Part shown: positions 15,001-27,000 of the stretch, piece after piece
Position numbering within the stretch: position 1 is the stretch's first letter
How the letters are laid out: the number at the start of each line of letters is the position of its first letter
DNA from: Elusimicrobiota bacterium
GTDB taxonomy: Bacteria > Elusimicrobiota > Elusimicrobia > Elusimicrobiales > UBA9959
Length of the DNA: 49,378 nt
Direction: 5' to 3'
Assembly (NCBI GenBank): GCA_027340875.1
Contig: DAIENX010000043.1
Coordinates: 1-49,378, forward strand
Position numbers: made by a program

Positions 15001-18000
15001 CAGGCCGTCGGTCCTTAGGGTGTCCATCACCTTGTCGTTGGACTCGAAGACGCTCATGCCCTCGAAGATGCCGGCGTCCGCGTTGAACCGGCCGTCCTCC
15101 TTGACGGGGCAGAAGATGTCGATGCCGTGCTTCTTGCCGGCGTGGAAGTCCTCCTCGCCGTGGCCGGGGGCTATGTGCACTATGCCGGTGCCGGTGGACA
15201 TGTCGACGAAGTCGGTGGAGATGACCTGGCGCGCGAAGCGCCTGCTCTCGGGGAGATGCGGCGCGAGGCAGTGGGAATACTTCAGGCCCACGAGCTTCTC
15301 ACCGGGTATCAGCGCGCCCTTCTGCGCCTCGAGGCCAGCGGCCTCGAGGAAGCCGTCGGCCAGCTTGTCGGCTACGATCAGGAACTGCCCGCCGGTCTCC
15401 AGCACGCGGTACTGCTCGTCCTTCGCCACGGCGGCGGCCATGTTGGACGGCAGCGTCCAGGGGGTGGTGGTCCAGATGACTATCGAGGAGCGGTTCTTGC
15501 CCACCGCCTCCAGCGCCTCCGGCAGGGTCTGCAGCGGGAAGCGGACGAAGATGGACGGCGAGACCTTCGTCTTGTACTCCACCTCGGCGTCGGCGAGCGC
15601 GGTCTCGCAGGTGACGCACCAGTAGATCGTCTTCTTGTCGCGGTGGATGTGGCCTTTCTCCAGCAGTTCGCGGAAGGCCTTTATCACCGTGCCCTCGTAA
15701 TCGTTGGACATCGTTATGTACGGCTTGTCCCAGCCGCCCAGCACGCCGAGGCGCTTGAACTCCTCGCGCTGTATGTCTATGAAGCGGGCGGCGAACTCCC
15801 GCGCCTTGCGGCGGAAGGCGGGCACGTCGTCGATATGGCGCTTGCCCATCTTCATTTCCTTGAGCAGCGCCTGCTCTATCGGCAGGCCGTGGCAGTCCCA
15901 GCCCGGCACGTAGGGGGTATAGCGCCCCATCATCGCGTGCGACTTGACCACCATGTCCTTGAGGATCTTGTTGAGGGCGTGGCCGATGTGGATGTGGCCG
16001 TTGGCGTAGGGGGGCCCGTCGTGCAGGACGTACGGGGCGGCGCCGCGGCGCTTCTCCAGCATCTTCCCGTACAGGTCCATCTTGTACCAGGATTCCAGGA
16101 TGCCGGGCTCCTTCCTGGCCAGGTCCCCCTTCATGGAGAACGAGGTCTTAGGCAGGAATACCGTCTTGGAATAGTCCGTGTTCTGCGTGGTCATCGTATG
16201 TCGTCCTTTATAAAAACTATTTTTAATTATACAAAAATAGCGGGGATACCCCGCCCCCAGCCCCCCGTAAAAGGTACCAGGTACCTTTTACGGGTATTTT
16301 TTGTGGTACAATTTTCGCTATGCCAAGAGGCCAGAGGATCTTTTTCGAGAACGCCCATTATCACATAATGGACCGCGGCAACGACCGTGGGACGATCTTT
16401 TCGGACCGTGGGGACAGGGAATACTATTTAGGGTTATTGGCGGATCTCAAGAAGGACTTCGGGGTGTTGCTGCCGGCTTACTCCCTGATGACGAACCACG
16501 TCCACCTCTACATTGTCACCCCCCGCGCGAACCTCGCCGAAGCGATGCACGCTCTCAACAAGGGGTATTCGCAGTATTTCAACAGGAAGCACGCCAAACA
16601 TGGCCACCTGTTCGGCGACCGCTACAAGTACAAGGTCATACAGAGCGACATCTATTCATTAGCGCTGGCGCGATACATTCACCTCAACCCGGTGAAGGCT
16701 GGGCTTGCGACAAAGGCAGAAGACTACGAATGGTCCAGCGCCGCGCAATATCTGGACAGAAAATCCGGACTTGCAGATCCGGGAATCGTACTGGACCCGC
16801 TTTCCGAACGGCGCGAGGACGCTATTGCTATATATATAGCGTTCATGTCCGAACCGCCTGAAAGACTGACGAAGAAGTTCTGGGGGAACTTCGACAAGCA
16901 GCGCAACATGGTCCTTGGCGACCCGGAATTCAAGAAGATCCACTCCCCCCACGGAGATTAAAAAGGTACCTGGTACCTTTTCAGGCGTGTTAAGGGTATT
17001 TAGCTAAAAGGTACCTGGTACCTTTTGGGGTAACTGGCGGCAGCGACCCCGCGGGGTCACTCTTTTTTTATGATGGAGATCTCGATGCGGCGGTTCTTCG
17101 CGCGGCCGTCGGCAGCGGAATTGTCGGCGATCGGCCGGTTATCGCCGTAGCCTATGCCGGCGAGCTGTTTCGACGGGATGCCCTGTCCTTCCATGAACCG
17201 CAGCACGCCGTAGGCGCGGGCCATCGAAAGCTCCCAGTTGGTGGAATATCTGCCCCTTCTTATCGGCACGTTGTCGGTGTGCCCCTCGATGACGATGTCG
17301 TTGGGGACCTTCTTCAGCTCTTCGGCTATCGGAGCCAGCACCTGCCTGGCATGCTCCTTAAGGTCGGCGTCGCCGGAGGCGAAAAGCACGCCTTCCGGCA
17401 GCACCAGCTTCATCTTGTGCTCGTTGGATTGTATCTGCACCAGATCGGCCATGTCGTCCGTTCCCATGGTCTTCTTGAGATTATCCTCCACCTGGGACTC
17501 CTGCTCCTGGGCCTTGGCCCGCTCTATCCGCTGAGAGTCCTCCTTCCCCCCGAACGCCTTTTGAATGTTCCCCAGGGATTCCTCATACTTGCGGCTCTTG
17601 GTCTTGTCCGTCCTCGCTATCGAAAAGGAAAAAAGGACGAGGAAGAATATCATCAGATAGCTCATCAGGTCGCCGTAGGTGACGGCCCACAGCGCCCCTT
17701 TGTTGAGCTGGTTCTCCACCTCGTCGCGTCTCTGCCTGTATACCGCCATGTAGAACTCTCCTTACCCCGCGTTAGCGCGCTGCCCCTGCATCAGAGCTCC
17801 AGGGCCGCCGCCCGGACGGCCTGGCCGCATGATCATTTTTCTCCGTTCTCATGCCTCAGCCTGGCAAGATCGGACACCAGCTGGGCTTTTTTTTCGGAGA
17901 TGATCGCGGCTTTTACCTCCAGCTGTTTCACCAGCCTGGCGGCGAACTCTACGTTCTTGCGCACTATCGCGCCGGAAACCCCGAGCAGCACCTCGAGATT

Positions 18001-24000: not shown

Positions 24001-27000
24001 CAGGCGCGTCACGTTCACTCCCAGCGTGGAGCCGTAGCGCAGCGGATACGCGGCGGAGAGGTACTGCTGGGAGACGTCCTGCAGGGAATCGTTATAGGTC
24101 GCCGCCAGCTGCGCCGCCTCCACGCTGGCCAGCCCGGCCGGATTCCACCATGGCGAGTAGGCGTCCTCGGAAACCGAGGTGTAGGCTTCGCCCATGCCGG
24201 TACCTCGGGGGCTGGGCGAGAACTTCAGGAACGAGGCCGCCGCCGAGCCGGCGCTCCCGGCGCAGACGGGGAGACGGCAAAGCAGCGCCGTAAGGAATAC
24301 GGCAGCGGCAGCAGTTCCGCGGGTTCCTCTATTCATAGTAAGCGCACCTATGAATAGTCTATAAGCGGAAGCCCCCTGAATCCCGAAGAAATTATGAAGT
24401 TCCTGCGTGCGTAGGAAGGGCCCCGGGGGCGCAGTTCCTGTCCGTCACGCCAGCGGTCAGATGGAAGCAGGCGCTCACAGACCGCGCGCCAGCAGGTAGC
24501 AGCTGATCGCGGAGAAGACCAGCAGGAGAGCTATGACCGCCCTGTCCCAGAGATCACGGCGTTCCATCAGCGCTGCCCCAGCACCTCTCCGGCCTTCTCC
24601 AGGACCTTTTCGGGAGGGATCATCTTAGGGAAGTAGCAGACGAAGCCCGGAGTGGACGAGAAGACGGTGTTCAGGCCGGCGTCCATGAAGTTTTCGCCGG
24701 TCATCACCACGAAACGCACGCCGCGCAGCCCGGGATCGGCGGCGGCGCGGCGCTTGAGCTCGATGGCGAACTCCTTGCCGGACATCACCGGCATGGCGAC
24801 GTCCAGCACGATGAAGTCTGGCTTGTCGGATACCACCGACGCCATAGCCTCCTTTCCGTTCTTGGCGAGCGCCACCGCGTAGCCGGCGTCCTCGAAGACG
24901 TAGCGGAAGAGTTCCAGTATGGCCGTCTCGTCGTCGACTATAAGCACTTTAGGCATCTTTTCGGGCCTCCGGTATCGTGAACGTGAATTTGCTGCCTTTC
25001 CCCTCCTGGGACTCGAGCGATATGTCCCCCCCATGGAGCTCCACGGCCATCTTGCACATGGCCAGCCCCAGGCCGAAACCCATGTATTTGTGCTCCTCCA
25101 GCTGGGAATACTTATCGAAGACCTCCTTATGCCTGTCCGGGGGTATCCCGGGTCCCGTGTCGGACACCGAGAACACCACCGTCCCGGCCCCGCCGCCGCA
25201 GGAGAGGATCACCCTGCCGCCCGACGGGGTGAACTTCAGGGAGTTACCGACCAGATTGCTTATCACCCTTTCCAGCAGACGTCCGTCCCCCTTGAAAGGC
25301 AGCGGGCCGGGGGCCGCCGGGGCAGAGAGAGCTATGTTCTTGCGCGCGGCCAGCGGCTCATAGAGCTCGAAGACGCGCCCGCACAGGGCATTGGCGTCAA
25401 GCTCCTCCGTAGAAAGCTTCATGTCGCCCTTCTCCAGCTTTATCGTGTTCAGGATATCCTCTATCATCCCGTTAAGGCGTACCGAGGAGTTCATGATGGC
25501 GTGCAGACATTTGCCGGACCTGGCGGAGAGCGGCAGGTCCTTCTCCAGCAGCTGGGCATAGCCCTGTATGCTGGTCAGCGGGGCGCGCATGTCATGGGTG
25601 ATCATGTGGAAGAAGGTCTCCCGGGCGCTCTCGATCTCCTTTTCCACGGTAACGTCCCTTATGACTATCACGCGGCCAGGCCGCTTGAACGCGGCCATCT
25701 GGAACTGCCGGGACATCACCCGGTAATCGCGCTCTACCGGGGAGCCCTGCCCGGAACCCAGCACGGCCACCTCCGCCTTGACGTAGTTGTCGGAAGAATC
25801 CATCAGGGCGGCGAGCACGGGGCGGAAGGGCTCCTCTCCTACGGAAGCGGGAAGGGAGATGTCCTGCTCCTCCTCCGGAACTTTCAGCACTTTCAGCGCC
25901 AGCTTATTGGAATGGATAAGCCTGCCCCTGTCGTCCACCAGCAGGATGGCGTCGCTGATGGTCTCGATCAGGGCCTGAGCCTTCGCGCGCTCCTCGACTA
26001 CCTGGTTCAGATGGAAGGCCCTGTAGGCGCTCAATTCCAGCATCAGCCGGTTCAGCGACGAAATAAGCTCGGCCGTTTCCGGCCAGCCCGTCTTAGGAAG
26101 CGGCGAGGCCAGCTTATAATCGGAGGTCCTGAAGGACTTCACCGTCTCCGACATGTTCTCCAGGGGCCGCCCCATGCCGCGCAGGACCGCCCGGACCGAG
26201 AAAAAGGACGCAAGAACGGCCGCGGCGGCCGCCGCGTAGCCGGCGCCGCCGGAGGAGCTCCACAGCGCGAAGACCGCCAAAGGAGCGGCGGCGGCGGCCG
26301 TGATGGTGAGCGATAGGCGGAAATTCAGCTTCATTCGAACGTTCTCCTGAATGCTCCGGGCATTATACCTCGGACGCGGCCGGGAAATCCCGAAAGCCGC
26401 TACGGCAGGAGGCCTGGTTCAGCCCAAGAAGGAAAGCATCTCTGACACACAGGACAGAAGTTCCTCGGACCTTACCGGTTTTTTGAAGAGGCGGACCCTC
26501 CCATGCGCCCGGAGAAACGGTTCGACGCGCTCTGGCAGGCCGGTGACGAAAATGACAGGGACGCCGCTTTTGAGTATTTCACGGGTTATCATGAACACCT
26601 GCTCCCCCCCGCCGCCGGGCATTTCGGCGTCCAGGATGACCAGGTGCGGCTTGAGCTCCAGGAAGATCATCATCGCGGCCGTCGCGTCCGGGGCGATCAG
26701 CACCTCGTAGCCCGCTTCCTGCAGCAGGGCCTTGTAGTACTCGGTCAGGGCCGGGTCGTCATCCACCGCGAGTATCCGCTTCATCGACGCGGCCTCCCGT
26801 CGAAGCGGGAGATCTCCCGCGCTATCCGGCCGAAATCGAACGGCTTGGGCAGCACCGGGATCTCCCGCGGGATGCCCATATCCGCCAGTTCCGCCGCCGA
26901 GGCTCCGGAAATTATCATCACGGCTATCCCGGCAAGGGCCGGGTACATGTCCATCATGGCTATCATGGAACTTCCCGACATCAGCGGCATGTGCAGATCG

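Follow-up and report, generated by a model that had tools for sequence, protein, structure and literature searches.

A FliF-FliG fusion rotor with its own MotA/MotB stator in an Elusimicrobiota genome: an operon that resembles a rotary envelope machine made of flagellar motor parts

What would a flagellar-type rotor and stator do in a bacterium whose genome matches none of the other flagellar parts searched for? The question is raised by one contig of an Elusimicrobiota bacterium (C111, DAIENX010000043.1; the 49,378-nucleotide stretch analysed here is called the window), which belongs to a bin of 112 contigs (G000) estimated as 92.45% complete with 5.49% contamination. ORF calling places six tightly spaced genes, all on the minus strand, at window positions 24336-17057, encoding in 5' to 3' order a PorV/PorQ-family barrel joined to a TPR domain (24336-22624, 570 aa), a histidine kinase (22611-21670, 313 aa), MotA (21651-20914, 245 aa), a FliF-FliG fusion (20897-19362, 511 aa when read from GTG 20897), a coiled-coil protein (19365-17833, 510 aa) and MotB (17749-17057, 230 aa), with gaps in that order of 12, 18, 16, -4 (an overlap) and 83 nt. 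Searches of Pfam and NCBIfam, AlphaFold models and comparisons with the PDB are concordant in assigning these parts. The ORFs and domain searches together uphold the operon proposed in a preliminary description of the locus, in which flagellar-type MotA and MotB share one strand with the fusion, a kinase, a PorV-like barrel+TPR and a coiled coil. The boundary given there, 24195, probably has to be moved, since the match to the PorV family sets in at residue 32, ahead of the methionine that 24195 implies, and a signal-peptide-like helix occupies residues 5-21; the sequence thus makes 24336 the most likely start of the barrel gene. The fusion gene may begin at ATG 20888, a likely start in place of GTG 20897, and the database entry covers the protein from residue 4.

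The fusion protein carries Pfam matches above cut-off to YscJ_FliF_C (33.4 bits, residues 137-187), FliG_M (50 bits, 297-365) and FliG_C (59.9 bits, 389-493). Its predicted build runs from a signal peptide or first membrane helix (residues 14-30) through a periplasmic RBM3-like ring-building domain (37-188, including a conserved low-confidence loop at 85-129), a second membrane helix (TM2, 198-244) and a linker that is disordered in the AF2 model (245-285; mean pLDDT of the whole model 78) to the two FliG domains (FliG_M 291-365, FliG_C 389-493). In Foldseek searches the C-terminal half matched FliG of 1lkv (E 2.6e-11) and the N-terminal half matched the FliF S-ring entries 8z4g, 6sd3, 8z5v and 6sd1 (E 2-3e-4). 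VIA superposed the N-terminal domain on FliF RBM3 over 97-99 residues (Z 14.2-14.6, rmsd 1.8-2.1 A), with much lower scores for the other ring-building motifs of PrgK (9.8), EscJ (8.7) and SpoIIIAG (8.5), and the FliG part on FliG in 8wiw_3 over 214 residues (Z 16.8, rmsd 4.1 A); phmmer matched the fusion to 1lkv at E 1e-25, and the NCBIfam FliG equivalog scored 83 bits, below its cut-off of 226.7. Pfam, AF2, Foldseek and VIA therefore bear out the earlier reading of a single polypeptide made of FliF RBM3, a membrane helix and FliG M and C, and the fold values agree with the earlier figures. A natural FliF-FliG fusion is thus present, but it is not new as such, a Chlamydiaceae fusion, which differs in build as described there, being already in print (PMC4768692). 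In the model, the linker of about 40 residues between TM2 and FliG_M may transmit torque poorly. As a separate counterpoint, there is no FliM/N to brace a FliG ring.

The stator is of the flagellar rather than the Tol/Exb kind, judging from the sequences of both subunits. The whole of MotA (residues 1-245; Pfam MotA_ExbB, 78 bits) can be aligned with solved chains of flagellar MotA/PomA at E of about 1e-34, and its P154 is found in 55 of 55 orthologues; MotB has a plug (MotB_plug, 46 bits), the channel residue Asp27 and an OmpA-type peptidoglycan-binding domain (OmpA, 75 bits). The conservation of the channel aspartate that had been reported holds for all five MotB proteins of the genome and for 45 of 45 orthologues. 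The top NCBIfam match of MotA, PomA (163 bits), lies below its equivalog cut-off, as does the score of MotB. The residues at which rotor and stator would meet are conserved to differing degrees: MotA retains R89 in 42/55, K/R97 in 52/55 and D/E98 in 45/55 orthologues, and FliG_C retains K/R454 in 51/57 and E460 in 52/57. The equivalents of D288/D289 on the torque helix of E. coli FliG, placed from PMC12505986 and by reading of the alignment, are Q461 (50/57) and S/T462, and that of R297 is variable, with R/K in 16/57. As the torque-helix acids are replaced and the MotA residue at the place of PomA E96 is K/R (52/55), any rotor-stator interface would differ from the flagellar one.

Could these genes be leftovers of a decaying flagellum, or belong to a true flagellum of which the bin failed to capture the rest? 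Remnants of flagella are known in non-motile species (PMC12199754), and flagella do occur in the phylum, FlhA being found in 9 of the 401 Elusimicrobiota genomes sampled. In profile searches the source genome was negative for FHIPEP, FliMN_C, Flg_bb_rod, Flagellin_N and YscJ_FliF (RBM1/2), five families that each matched in 4 of 14 control genomes, and FliG_N likewise found nothing; because the bin is incomplete (112 contigs, 92% complete, 5.5% contamination), absence there is no proof on its own. The relatives point the same way: of 20 further genomes of the genus none has FlhA and all have FliG_C, and in the family the counts are 2/47 for FlhA and 44/47 for FliG_C, so that the lack of other flagellar parts claimed for genome and genus stands in a smaller sample with like proportions. 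Across the phylum FliG_C (175/401) and MotB_plug (187/401) are distributed almost identically by family (44 v 45 of 47 in f1, 41 v 41 of 47 in f8, 1 v 1 of 89 in f16, 11 v 11 of 11 in f19), a pattern that speaks for a coupling of rotor and stator. The family extends further than the Elusimicrobia, to which it had been limited, given a named member from Saganbacteria; ESM Atlas also has clusters that combine these three Pfam domains under the labels Pseudomonadota, Bdellovibrionota, Cloacimonadota, Bacteroidota and Balneolota, which serve as leads only.

The six reading frames are intact in the window and in 62 related loci, and their partners (kinase, PorV-like barrel, coiled-coil protein) are non-flagellar. 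The genome also contains four to five rotor/stator sets, which confirms that there are several paralogues, although C30 and C81, previously equated, are different sequences (91.6% identity over 5064 nt). The joining of C98 to C63 is plausible since a Pro/Ala-rich tail runs on in frame, with no exact overlap found between them, and a further FliG_M/C-like gene, the fifth, stands alone at C28:93-962. Four of the nine FlhA-positive genomes encode both an ordinary FliG of about 335-356 aa and a fusion-type frame of about 640-675 aa. With this number of sets per genome and the fusion standing beside ordinary FliG in flagellated relatives, the FliF-FliG/MotAB set is not a relic, and an origin in a lost or unassembled flagellum is so improbable as to be close to refuted.

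The gene neighbourhood is strongly retained, as had been claimed. Gene retention was counted in the 34 related loci flanked by 4 kb or more on each side, and these keep the barrel-TPR gene in 34, the kinase (separate or fused) in 34, MotA and MotB in 33 each and the coiled-coil gene after the rotor gene in 29. The start of the coiled-coil gene overlaps the rotor gene stop by 4 nt, and its product, predicted to be cytoplasmic, matched no Pfam or NCBIfam family above cut-off and no PDB sequence at E < 0.05, ESM Atlas returning generic coiled coils only. The kinase (HisKA 66.7 bits, HATPase_c 87.4 bits) consists of one N-terminal membrane helix, a coiled coil, HisKA and HATPase_c, with no sensor domain. 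In 12 of the 62 loci, and in 5 of the 26 representatives scanned, it forms one protein with the rotor, joined to the rotor's N-terminus. Directly upstream of the operon, Pfam places a signalling cassette (24567..27149, minus strand) of three receiver-only response regulators (27149-26781, 26784-26419 and 25034-24567) and a PAS histidine kinase (26334-24949). Of the 62 loci, 9 have the PAS kinase upstream and 12 the regulator of 155 aa, all of them close relatives; the cassette is possibly a control layer of the system, its membership being uncertain.

A kinase that lacks its own sensor, is present in every full locus, is in places fused to the rotor and in the window lies beside receivers could also be read another way, with ring and stators forming the input module of a two-component system that gauges ion-motive force or envelope load and does not rotate continuously. 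Stator engagement with FliG_C would then alter the attached kinase, which would signal to receivers, and the barrel-TPR protein would merely position or load the ring. The partial retention of the canonical torque charges suits such a gauge, as does the FlgS kinase of Campylobacter jejuni, which is described as requiring the FliF/FliG ring (PMC3760246) and parallels the link between kinase and ring seen here. However, a complete, plug-gated and peptidoglycan-anchored flagellar stator, an RBM3 ring and a barrel present in all 34 full loci are superfluous to a gauge, and the paralogous sets on C30 and C63 have no adjoining kinase gene, so that we regard this explanation as unlikely.

The barrel protein leads to the question of output. 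Its predicted parts are a PorV/PorQ-family outer-membrane beta-barrel (residues ~32-322), a disordered linker and a periplasmic, all-helical TPR domain (~347-567). NCBIfam PorV/PorQ NF033709 scored 162 bits, well over its cut-off of 90, and covered model positions 2-324 of 326, whereas Pfam gave TPR_1 at 39 bits and PorV at 24.9 bits, below its cut-off of 27. With the AF2 model (pLDDT 84.6), Foldseek ranked 8gl6_F first (E 8.5e-17, TMt 0.70), followed by 6h3i_F (E 3.9e-14), with FadL and TodX at merely ~1e-6. This family membership brings in the possibility that the rotor-stator energises a type-IX-like surface-protein pathway, in the role of GldLM/PorLM in Bacteroidota; it would power the export or release of sorting-domain proteins held on PorV-like barrels, or their movement at the surface. 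Such a role names an output for a rotor-stator machine and does not contradict one. T9SS motors are described as PMF-driven 5:2 motors (PMC8986121, PMC10202324). The genome encodes sorting-domain proteins at 8 places (E <= 0.01), of which 2 exceed the Pfam cut-off (12 frames by a custom profile), 5 of its 7 PorV-like places directly follow such a protein, and a protein of 1784 aa is distantly SprA/Sov-like (TIGR04189, 135 bits, below the cut-off of 200); the GldM profile found no match in the genome and was silent in the control too. In all 10 assessable loci of the kinase-fused layout, a giant protein of 1000 aa or more, ending in a sorting domain of T9SS type, is encoded directly upstream of the barrel-TPR gene (gene end no more than 500 nt before it), but related loci share labels by kinship and the 10 may amount to one event.

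The layout of the window itself differs: a giant gene lies directly upstream in 3 of 28 such loci and within 5 kb in 8 of 28, none of the five type-I giants tested (including the 1817-aa and 906-aa proteins of the window) had a sorting domain, and the search gave no sorting-domain hit on contig C111, beside the operon or elsewhere. As far as neighbourhood goes, the previously suggested link to cargo is strong in the kinase-fused layout of relatives alone and not in the window's own operon. Co-distribution does not sustain it, because PorV-family barrels occur in 364/401 genomes, including two families given as lacking FliG_C and MotB_plug (114/118 in f2, 56/89 in f16), and the barrel family as such is thus independent of the rotor. 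In addition, the T9SS is stated to be confined to Bacteroidota/FCB (PMC7463736, PMC12398890), and a role as energiser of such a pathway is conceivable but rather doubtful. A predicted complex of RBM3 with the TPR domain scored 0.35 (runs 0.42, 0.28 and 0.35; best control 0.01), the runs sharing at least 47% of contacts with partner pLDDT of at least 88. Among solved complexes 116 of 157 attained the mark for such predictions, as did 2 of 215 mismatches; at scores of 0.60 or below just 18 of the 157 did so, along with both passing mismatches. The model lends weak support to an RBM3-TPR contact.

Our search of the literature found no published description of a rotor-stator machine of this kind, and a working scheme can be proposed. 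The fusion would be inserted with RBM3 in the periplasm and assemble, as RBM3 of FliF does, into a membrane ring, and its FliG M and C domains would build a ring on the cytoplasmic side that dispenses with FliG_N, FliM and FliN, since the covalent link takes the place of the joint between the FliF tail and FliG_N. A MotA5B2 stator, anchored to peptidoglycan by the OmpA domain of MotB and gated by the plug, would pass ions by way of Asp27, and the cytoplasmic loop of MotA (R89, K/R97, D/E98) would push the FliG_C helix (K454, E460), turning the ring or loading it. The sensor-less kinase on the ring would either report its assembly or load state to receivers or control the ring. Most speculatively, the TPR arm that the PorV-like outer-membrane barrel would extend into the periplasm might dock on the ring and so hand on torque or position to the barrel, whose family holds T9SS cargo by the C-terminal sorting domain, the cargo in kinase-fused relatives perhaps being the giant protein encoded directly upstream. 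On balance, the operon probably encodes a non-flagellar rotor-stator machine in which MotA5B2 turns or loads a FliF-FliG ring wired to a kinase and a PorV-like outer-membrane barrel, ring formation, rotation and output being the parts that we infer; it looks like a rotary machine of the cell envelope made of flagellar motor parts.

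The six genes of the operon run along the minus strand from 24336 to 17057, with intergenic gaps of 12, 18, 16, -4 and 83 nt. The first encodes a 570-aa protein that combines a PorV/PorQ-family barrel with TPRs (24336-22624; NF033709, 162 bits against a cut-off of 90; Pfam TPR_1, 39 bits), and the second a membrane-anchored two-component histidine kinase of 313 aa (22611-21670; HisKA 66.7 bits, HATPase_c 87.4 bits) in which neither the Pfam search nor the sequence reveals a sensor domain. These are followed by a 245-aa MotA (21651-20914; Pfam), the 511-aa FliF-FliG fusion (20897-19362), in which YscJ_FliF_C, FliG_M and FliG_C each score above their cut-offs, a 510-aa coiled-coil protein (19365-17833) and a 230-aa MotB with a plug and an OmpA domain (17749-17057; Pfam). 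The coiled-coil protein falls into no Pfam or NCBIfam family and has no relative in the PDB, and the ESM Atlas returns generic coiled coils only. Immediately upstream of the operon, the minus strand also encodes a pair of receiver-only regulators, then a PAS kinase and one more receiver-only regulator (27149-24567; Pfam), and 4.4 kb upstream, also on the minus strand, are two genes for very large proteins of no clear family (28786-36959), one of 1817 aa and the other of 906 aa with a single Big_5 domain. An IS200-type Y1 transposase gene (16320-16961, plus strand; Y1_Tnp 53.6 bits) sits between motB and ileS, right after the end of the operon, and four further regulator genes, one OmpR-type with Trans_reg_C and then three receiver-domain proteins, are found on the plus strand at 41602-43905. 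This stretch is represented in four DNA sequencing runs of one study, and no RNA run that contains it is listed.

The AlphaFold model of the fusion (mean pLDDT 78, from an alignment of 50 sequences) consists of a hydrophobic N-terminal helix (residues 14-30), a periplasmic alpha/beta domain (37-188) that includes a conserved loop of low confidence with invariant P115 and G116 (85-129), a long membrane helix (198-244), a disordered linker (245-285) and the FliG middle and C-terminal domains (291-505). The periplasmic part, of only about 150 residues, is an RBM3 or S-ring domain (PF08345, 33.4 bits against a cut-off of 23.8); it superposes on the RBM3 of Salmonella and Vibrio FliF with Z 14.2-14.6 and an rmsd of 1.8-2.1 A over 97-99 residues (VIA), while the remaining ring-building motifs score much lower (Z 8.5-9.8), and Foldseek too places it on FliF RBM3. 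RBM1/RBM2 (YscJ_FliF, PF01514) has no match anywhere in the genome. The cytoplasmic half carries the armadillo and torque-helix domains of FliG (FliG_M 50 bits, FliG_C 59.9 bits; phmmer E 1e-25 to 1lkv), with structural matches by VIA to 8wiw_3 (Z 16.8) and 1qc7_B (Z 13.6, rmsd 1.0 A over 88 residues). The FliG_N profile gives only a sub-threshold 19.6 bits that overlaps the middle domain, and the FliG equivalog model TIGR00207 reaches 83 bits against a cut-off of 226.7. The N-termini of the paralogous rotor proteins resemble cleavable signal peptides; in relatives in which the kinase is fused to the rotor, the N-terminal hydrophobic segment must span the membrane for the topology to work.

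The putative stator is of the flagellar kind. MotA, understood as a protein with four transmembrane helices and a large cytoplasmic torque interface that aligns end to end with a solved MotA or PomA, is represented here by residues 1-245, which align with 1-245 of 9luc_C (E 8e-35) and match PomA 8brd/8bri (E 4e-34); the TolQ model gives only 24 bits (NCBIfam). MotB has the plug (MotB_plug 46 bits), the channel aspartate and the peptidoglycan-binding domain (OmpA 75 bits), and the aspartate (D27) is shared without exception by the five MotB proteins that the genome encodes and by 45 of 45 orthologues. Neither subunit reaches the equivalog level of a named flagellar stator, the scores being 163 bits for PomA (NF006527; cut-off 341) and, on the MotB side, 179 bits for the best model, MotD (NF006541; cut-off 283).

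At the predicted rotor-stator interface, MotA has R89 at the place of PomA R88 in 42 of 55 orthologues, and K/R97 at the place of E96 in 52 of 55 with a neighbouring acid, D/E98, in 45 of 55. The register of the FliG torque helix was taken from a phmmer alignment to T. maritima FliG, and the E. coli places (K264, R281, D288, D289, R297) are presumably as numbered here. With that register, K/R454 occupies the R281 place in 51 of 57 orthologues, the D288 place holds Q in 50 of 57 and the D289 place S/T, with E460, immediately before these two, kept in 52 of 57, and R or K stands at the R297 place in 16 of 57. The preliminary description had cautioned that the torque charges are kept in part only, which agrees with these replacements. 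Further departures from flagellar FliG are the EHPQR motif, which reads EDPAN in the fusion, and the MFXF hinge, which is missing. As read from the alignments, the charge pattern of the putative interface is conserved within the family yet differs from that of E. coli.

The same description had proposed a natural FliF-FliG rotor with its own MotA/MotB in a genome without flagella, and the searches for flagellar parts bear out the last point. FHIPEP (the export-gate protein FlhA), FliMN_C, Flg_bb_rod, Flagellin_N and YscJ_FliF have no match in the genome (112 contigs, 92% complete), FliMN_C, Flg_bb_rod and Flagellin_N having been searched in six frames at E <= 0.01, and each of the flagellar control families gave matches in 4 of 14 control genomes. 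FHIPEP is also absent from all 20 other genomes of the genus. Across a sample of 401 genomes of the phylum Elusimicrobiota, FHIPEP occurs in 9, FliG_C in 175, spanning 91 of 122 genera, and MotB_plug in 187 (181 over the cut-off), with the tallies of FliG_C and MotB_plug per family nearly coinciding. A fusion of this kind might be a relic of a lost flagellum. Four of the nine FHIPEP-positive genomes, however, hold an ordinary FliG-sized frame and a fusion-type frame of about 640-675 aa side by side, and since both FliG types are present together in these genomes, the fusion is a system of its own and no relic.

A scan of one genome per species recovered 62 related loci, of which 55 are labelled Elusimicrobia, 7 carry no phylum and none another phylum. 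Neighbours were called by comparing same-strand genes within 7 kb with the window's proteins (phmmer), and a subset of 34 loci had at least 4 kb on either side (full flanks). The barrel-TPR protein is present at 51 of 62 loci (34 of 34 with full flanks), the kinase at 55 (43 separate and 12 fused; 34 of 34), MotA at 54 (33 of 34), MotB at 46 (33 of 34) and the coiled-coil protein at 40 (29 of 34); the loci are kin, and the counts are therefore not independent events. Two layouts can be distinguished. In type I, that of the window, the order is barrel-TPR, kinase, MotA, rotor, coiled coil and MotB, and in type II it is barrel-TPR, a kinase-rotor fusion of about 820 aa, coiled coil, MotA and MotB. 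At many type I loci (L013, L015-L017, L019, L020, L022, L023, L026 and others) 0.8-1.6 kb separate the coiled-coil gene from motB, a gap that presumably holds an extra gene and that in the window is only 83 nt.

Beyond these loci, 8 of 30 cluster representatives of the fusion bear an organism name, seven being Elusimicrobia and one Saganbacteria, and in the ESM Atlas the clusters that combine the three Pfam domains of the fusion carry the labels Pseudomonadota, Bdellovibrionota, Cloacimonadota, Bacteroidota and Balneolota, which we treat as leads only. A homologue search with the C30-type paralogue gave 370 matches, and the named organisms among the best 120 are all Elusimicrobia. When a two-sequence alignment of the Saganbacteria type was run against a wide contig set, 602 stretches matched and none was confirmed. 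A tblastn search of the fusion against plasmids returned 155 records, none covering 80% of the query; the best, on a Sphingobium chromid, is a conventional fliF-fliG pair of a 651-aa ORF followed by a 360-aa ORF.

Within the genome itself FliG_C matches on contigs C30, C111 (the window), C76 and C98, and weakly on C28. The C30 set comprises a MotA/MotB pair, an 813-aa coiled-coil protein and TPR elements, and the C76 set a barrel-TPR protein, a HAMP kinase and a MotA/MotB pair. A set at the end of contig C63, with a TPR protein, two MotB and one MotA, is probably the continuation of the C98 rotor gene across a putative join. The two MotB genes of this set (215 and 262 aa; C63:58821-60253, L009:3821-5253) stand in tandem beside the MotA and the TPR protein, and a 1539-aa frame about 2 kb from them matches the sorting domain weakly (25.5 bits). 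Contig C81 repeats the C30 rotor-stator set with 91.6% identity over 5064 nt, which reflects either mixed strains in the bin (contamination 5.5%) or recent duplication. The C28 match (93-962, minus strand; L010), sited at the contig start, is a stand-alone 289-aa protein with FliG_M at 39 bits and FliG_C at a weak 21 bits, and it has no periplasmic domain.

In comparison with the flagellar motor core (FliF, FliG and MotA5B2/PomA5B2), the operon shares RBM3, the middle and C-terminal torque domains of FliG, a full-build MotA and a MotB with plug, channel aspartate and OmpA-type anchor. It differs in that FliF and FliG form a single chain, in that RBM1/2, FliG_N, FliM/N, export gate, rod, hook and filament are lacking, and in that rotor and stator are accompanied by a kinase, a PorV-like barrel-TPR protein and a coiled-coil protein. 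A published natural precedent is the FliF-FliG fusion of Chlamydiaceae, which likewise unites FliF-type periplasmic ring motifs, a membrane helix and cytoplasmic FliG in one natural chain, in bacteria without flagella; as described there, it has about 330 aa with RBM2, one RBM-like domain and only the middle region of FliG, lacks FliG_C and MotA/MotB, and is thought to act with the injectisome (Bergeron, 2016; PMC4768692). On that description (PMC4768692), the chlamydial build is not the one found here, where the fusion has 508-511 aa with RBM3, FliG_M and FliG_C and lies next to MotA/MotB. Engineered FliF-FliG fusions of Salmonella and Vibrio are reported still to assemble rings (PMC6079021, PMC11481574, PMC10941966), and the model of our fusion matches the Vibrio construct (PDB 8z4d/8z4g); those constructs are laboratory-made, join full-length FliF to full-length FliG and function within a complete flagellar system. 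A comparable machine is named neither in the available text of a classification of MotAB (PMC12505986) nor, as a FliG-based non-flagellar machine, in that of a review of 5:2-motor systems (PMC12204202), and our search of the full-text literature, whose coverage ends at subscription journals and supplements, found no published non-flagellar FliF-FliG/MotAB machine.

What the operon contains, how well it is conserved and the lack of further flagellar components are matters of observation; that the operon encodes a working rotor-stator pair is a reading we favour with some reserve. The fusion would assemble through RBM3 into a membrane ring, plug-gated and wall-anchored MotA5B2 units would act on its FliG_C layer, and the kinase would ride on or beside the ring. 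The TPR arm of the barrel might then join the ring to the outer membrane, which is the most speculative step. For this last contact a predicted RBM3-TPR complex lends weak support, with a score of 0.35 against 0.01 for the best control, on a scale where the mark was reached by 116 of the 157 solved pairs and by 2 of the 215 mismatches, and where at scores of 0.60 or less only 18 of the 157 solved pairs did so, together with both passing mismatches. The prediction runs had at least 47% of contacts in common, and the partner pLDDT was at least 88.

The kinase bears on what such a device would do. In the FlgSR checkpoint of C. jejuni a kinase without an obvious external sensor depends for its activity on the FliF/FliG ring, and FlgS, unlike the kinase described here, is reportedly soluble, unlinked and devoted to flagellar gene expression (PMC3760246). 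The Elusimicrobia kinase has a membrane anchor and is encoded in the operon, and in some species it is fused to the ring protein. The main alternative reading of the output is that the rotor and stator serve as a gauge of force or of ion-motive force that feeds the kinase, and we hold this to be rather unlikely. The leading guess, itself less likely than not, is that the rotor-stator pair drives a type-IX-like handling of sorting-domain surface proteins, and it is the barrel and its neighbours that bear on it.

The model of the barrel (pLDDT 84.6) matches chain F of two type-IX translocon entries, 8gl6 (E 8.5e-17) and 6h3i (E 3.9e-14), with TMt 0.70-0.72 (Foldseek), a chain that we take to be PorV, whereas FadL-type channels reach only about E 1e-6. 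The genome encodes proteins with a T9SS-type C-terminal sorting domain, and five of its seven PorV-like places directly follow one, a large sorting-domain protein and then the barrel recurring at C11:11049-17528, C69:26953-31036, C102:2957-8478, C104:13199-17431 and C52:5847-6825. The barrel-TPR of the window is not among these five, and its contig has no sorting-domain match. Profile searches of five type I giants, the 1817-aa and 906-aa proteins of the window included, detected no sorting domain, and a giant gene lies directly upstream at 3 of 28 type I loci and within 5 kb at 8 of 28. At all ten type II loci that could be assessed, the barrel-TPR gene is preceded by an ORF of 1000 aa or more whose end lies within 500 nt of it. 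These ten giants (L056, L058, L061, L064-L067 and L072-L074) range from at least 1439 to at least 2447 aa, most being truncated by the locus start, and carry Laminin_G_3, fn3 and DUF6242 repeats and a shared, conserved C-terminal sorting domain; in the three scanned, FlgD_ig is above the cut-off in all and Por_Secre_tail appears in two, under the cut-off. A putative pairing of barrel and cargo, as suggested by gene neighbourhood, is absent from the window and present at 10 of 10 assessable kinase-fused loci. Co-distribution of PorV and FliG_C was considered as further support and rejected, because almost every genome sampled from the phylum has PorV-family barrels (364 of 401, families without FliG_C included).

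Resemblance to the type-IX secretion and gliding apparatus of Bacteroidota (the motor GldLM/PorLM, the translocon SprA, shuttle barrels of the PorV/PorQ/SprF type and C-terminal sorting domains) extends to several parts. In that apparatus a two-component system, PorXY, is tied to the motor, and here too a two-component kinase is linked with the motor; both have a PorV/PorQ-family barrel in the outer membrane and giant sorting-domain surface proteins encoded next to their own barrel. Elsewhere in the genome (contig C14; L075:5514-10868, minus strand) a 1784-aa protein, whose gene adjoins lptF/lptG, matches SprA/Sov (TIGR04189) in three stretches with 135 bits and E 1e-39, below the cut-off of 200. 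GldM and SprA_N have no match in the genome, although the control genomes gave none either. The two apparatuses differ in that MotAB would act on a FliG ring here, as against GldL5M2 with a periplasmic shaft, in that the barrel has a TPR arm of its own, and in that the phylum lies outside the FCB group. Both would be powered by a 5:2 inner-membrane motor driven by the proton-motive force, as is reported for the type-IX system (PMC12618676, PMC8986121). Taken as sequence matches, the SprA-like protein, the sorting-domain proteins and the PorV-like barrels hint that Elusimicrobia, which lie outside the FCB group, have a type-IX-like pathway.

Our most far-reaching proposal, for which we would claim less than an even chance, is that the operon represents a widespread and undescribed class of envelope-spanning rotary machine, in which a minimal FliF-FliG ring with an on-board kinase is driven by MotAB and moves, spins or releases giant sorting-domain proteins by way of the TPR arm on a PorV-like barrel. 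To our knowledge, FliG is regarded as a torque receiver of the flagellum only, and MotAB as its dedicated stator. If the proposal is correct, a type-IX-like or gliding-like apparatus would be powered by a flagellar-type rotor, which would be the simplest natural rotor known and could have branched off from the flagellar motor or be related to the pre-flagellar ancestor of that motor. With a ring of one protein of about 510 residues and no need of FliM/N, export gate or rod, such a rotor would suit structural study of torque generation and arguments on the origin of the flagellar motor. In a survey of flagellar loss, rotor proteins without filaments were found in 11% of non-motile species and their role was left open (PMC12199754), and the operon offers a concrete and testable object for that question. 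The fusion of kinase and rotor points to a way for two-component signalling to be connected with a mechanical or ion-driven device, and the PorV-like barrel with its sorting-domain neighbours suggests that type-IX-like handling of surface proteins may exist in this phylum with a different motor.
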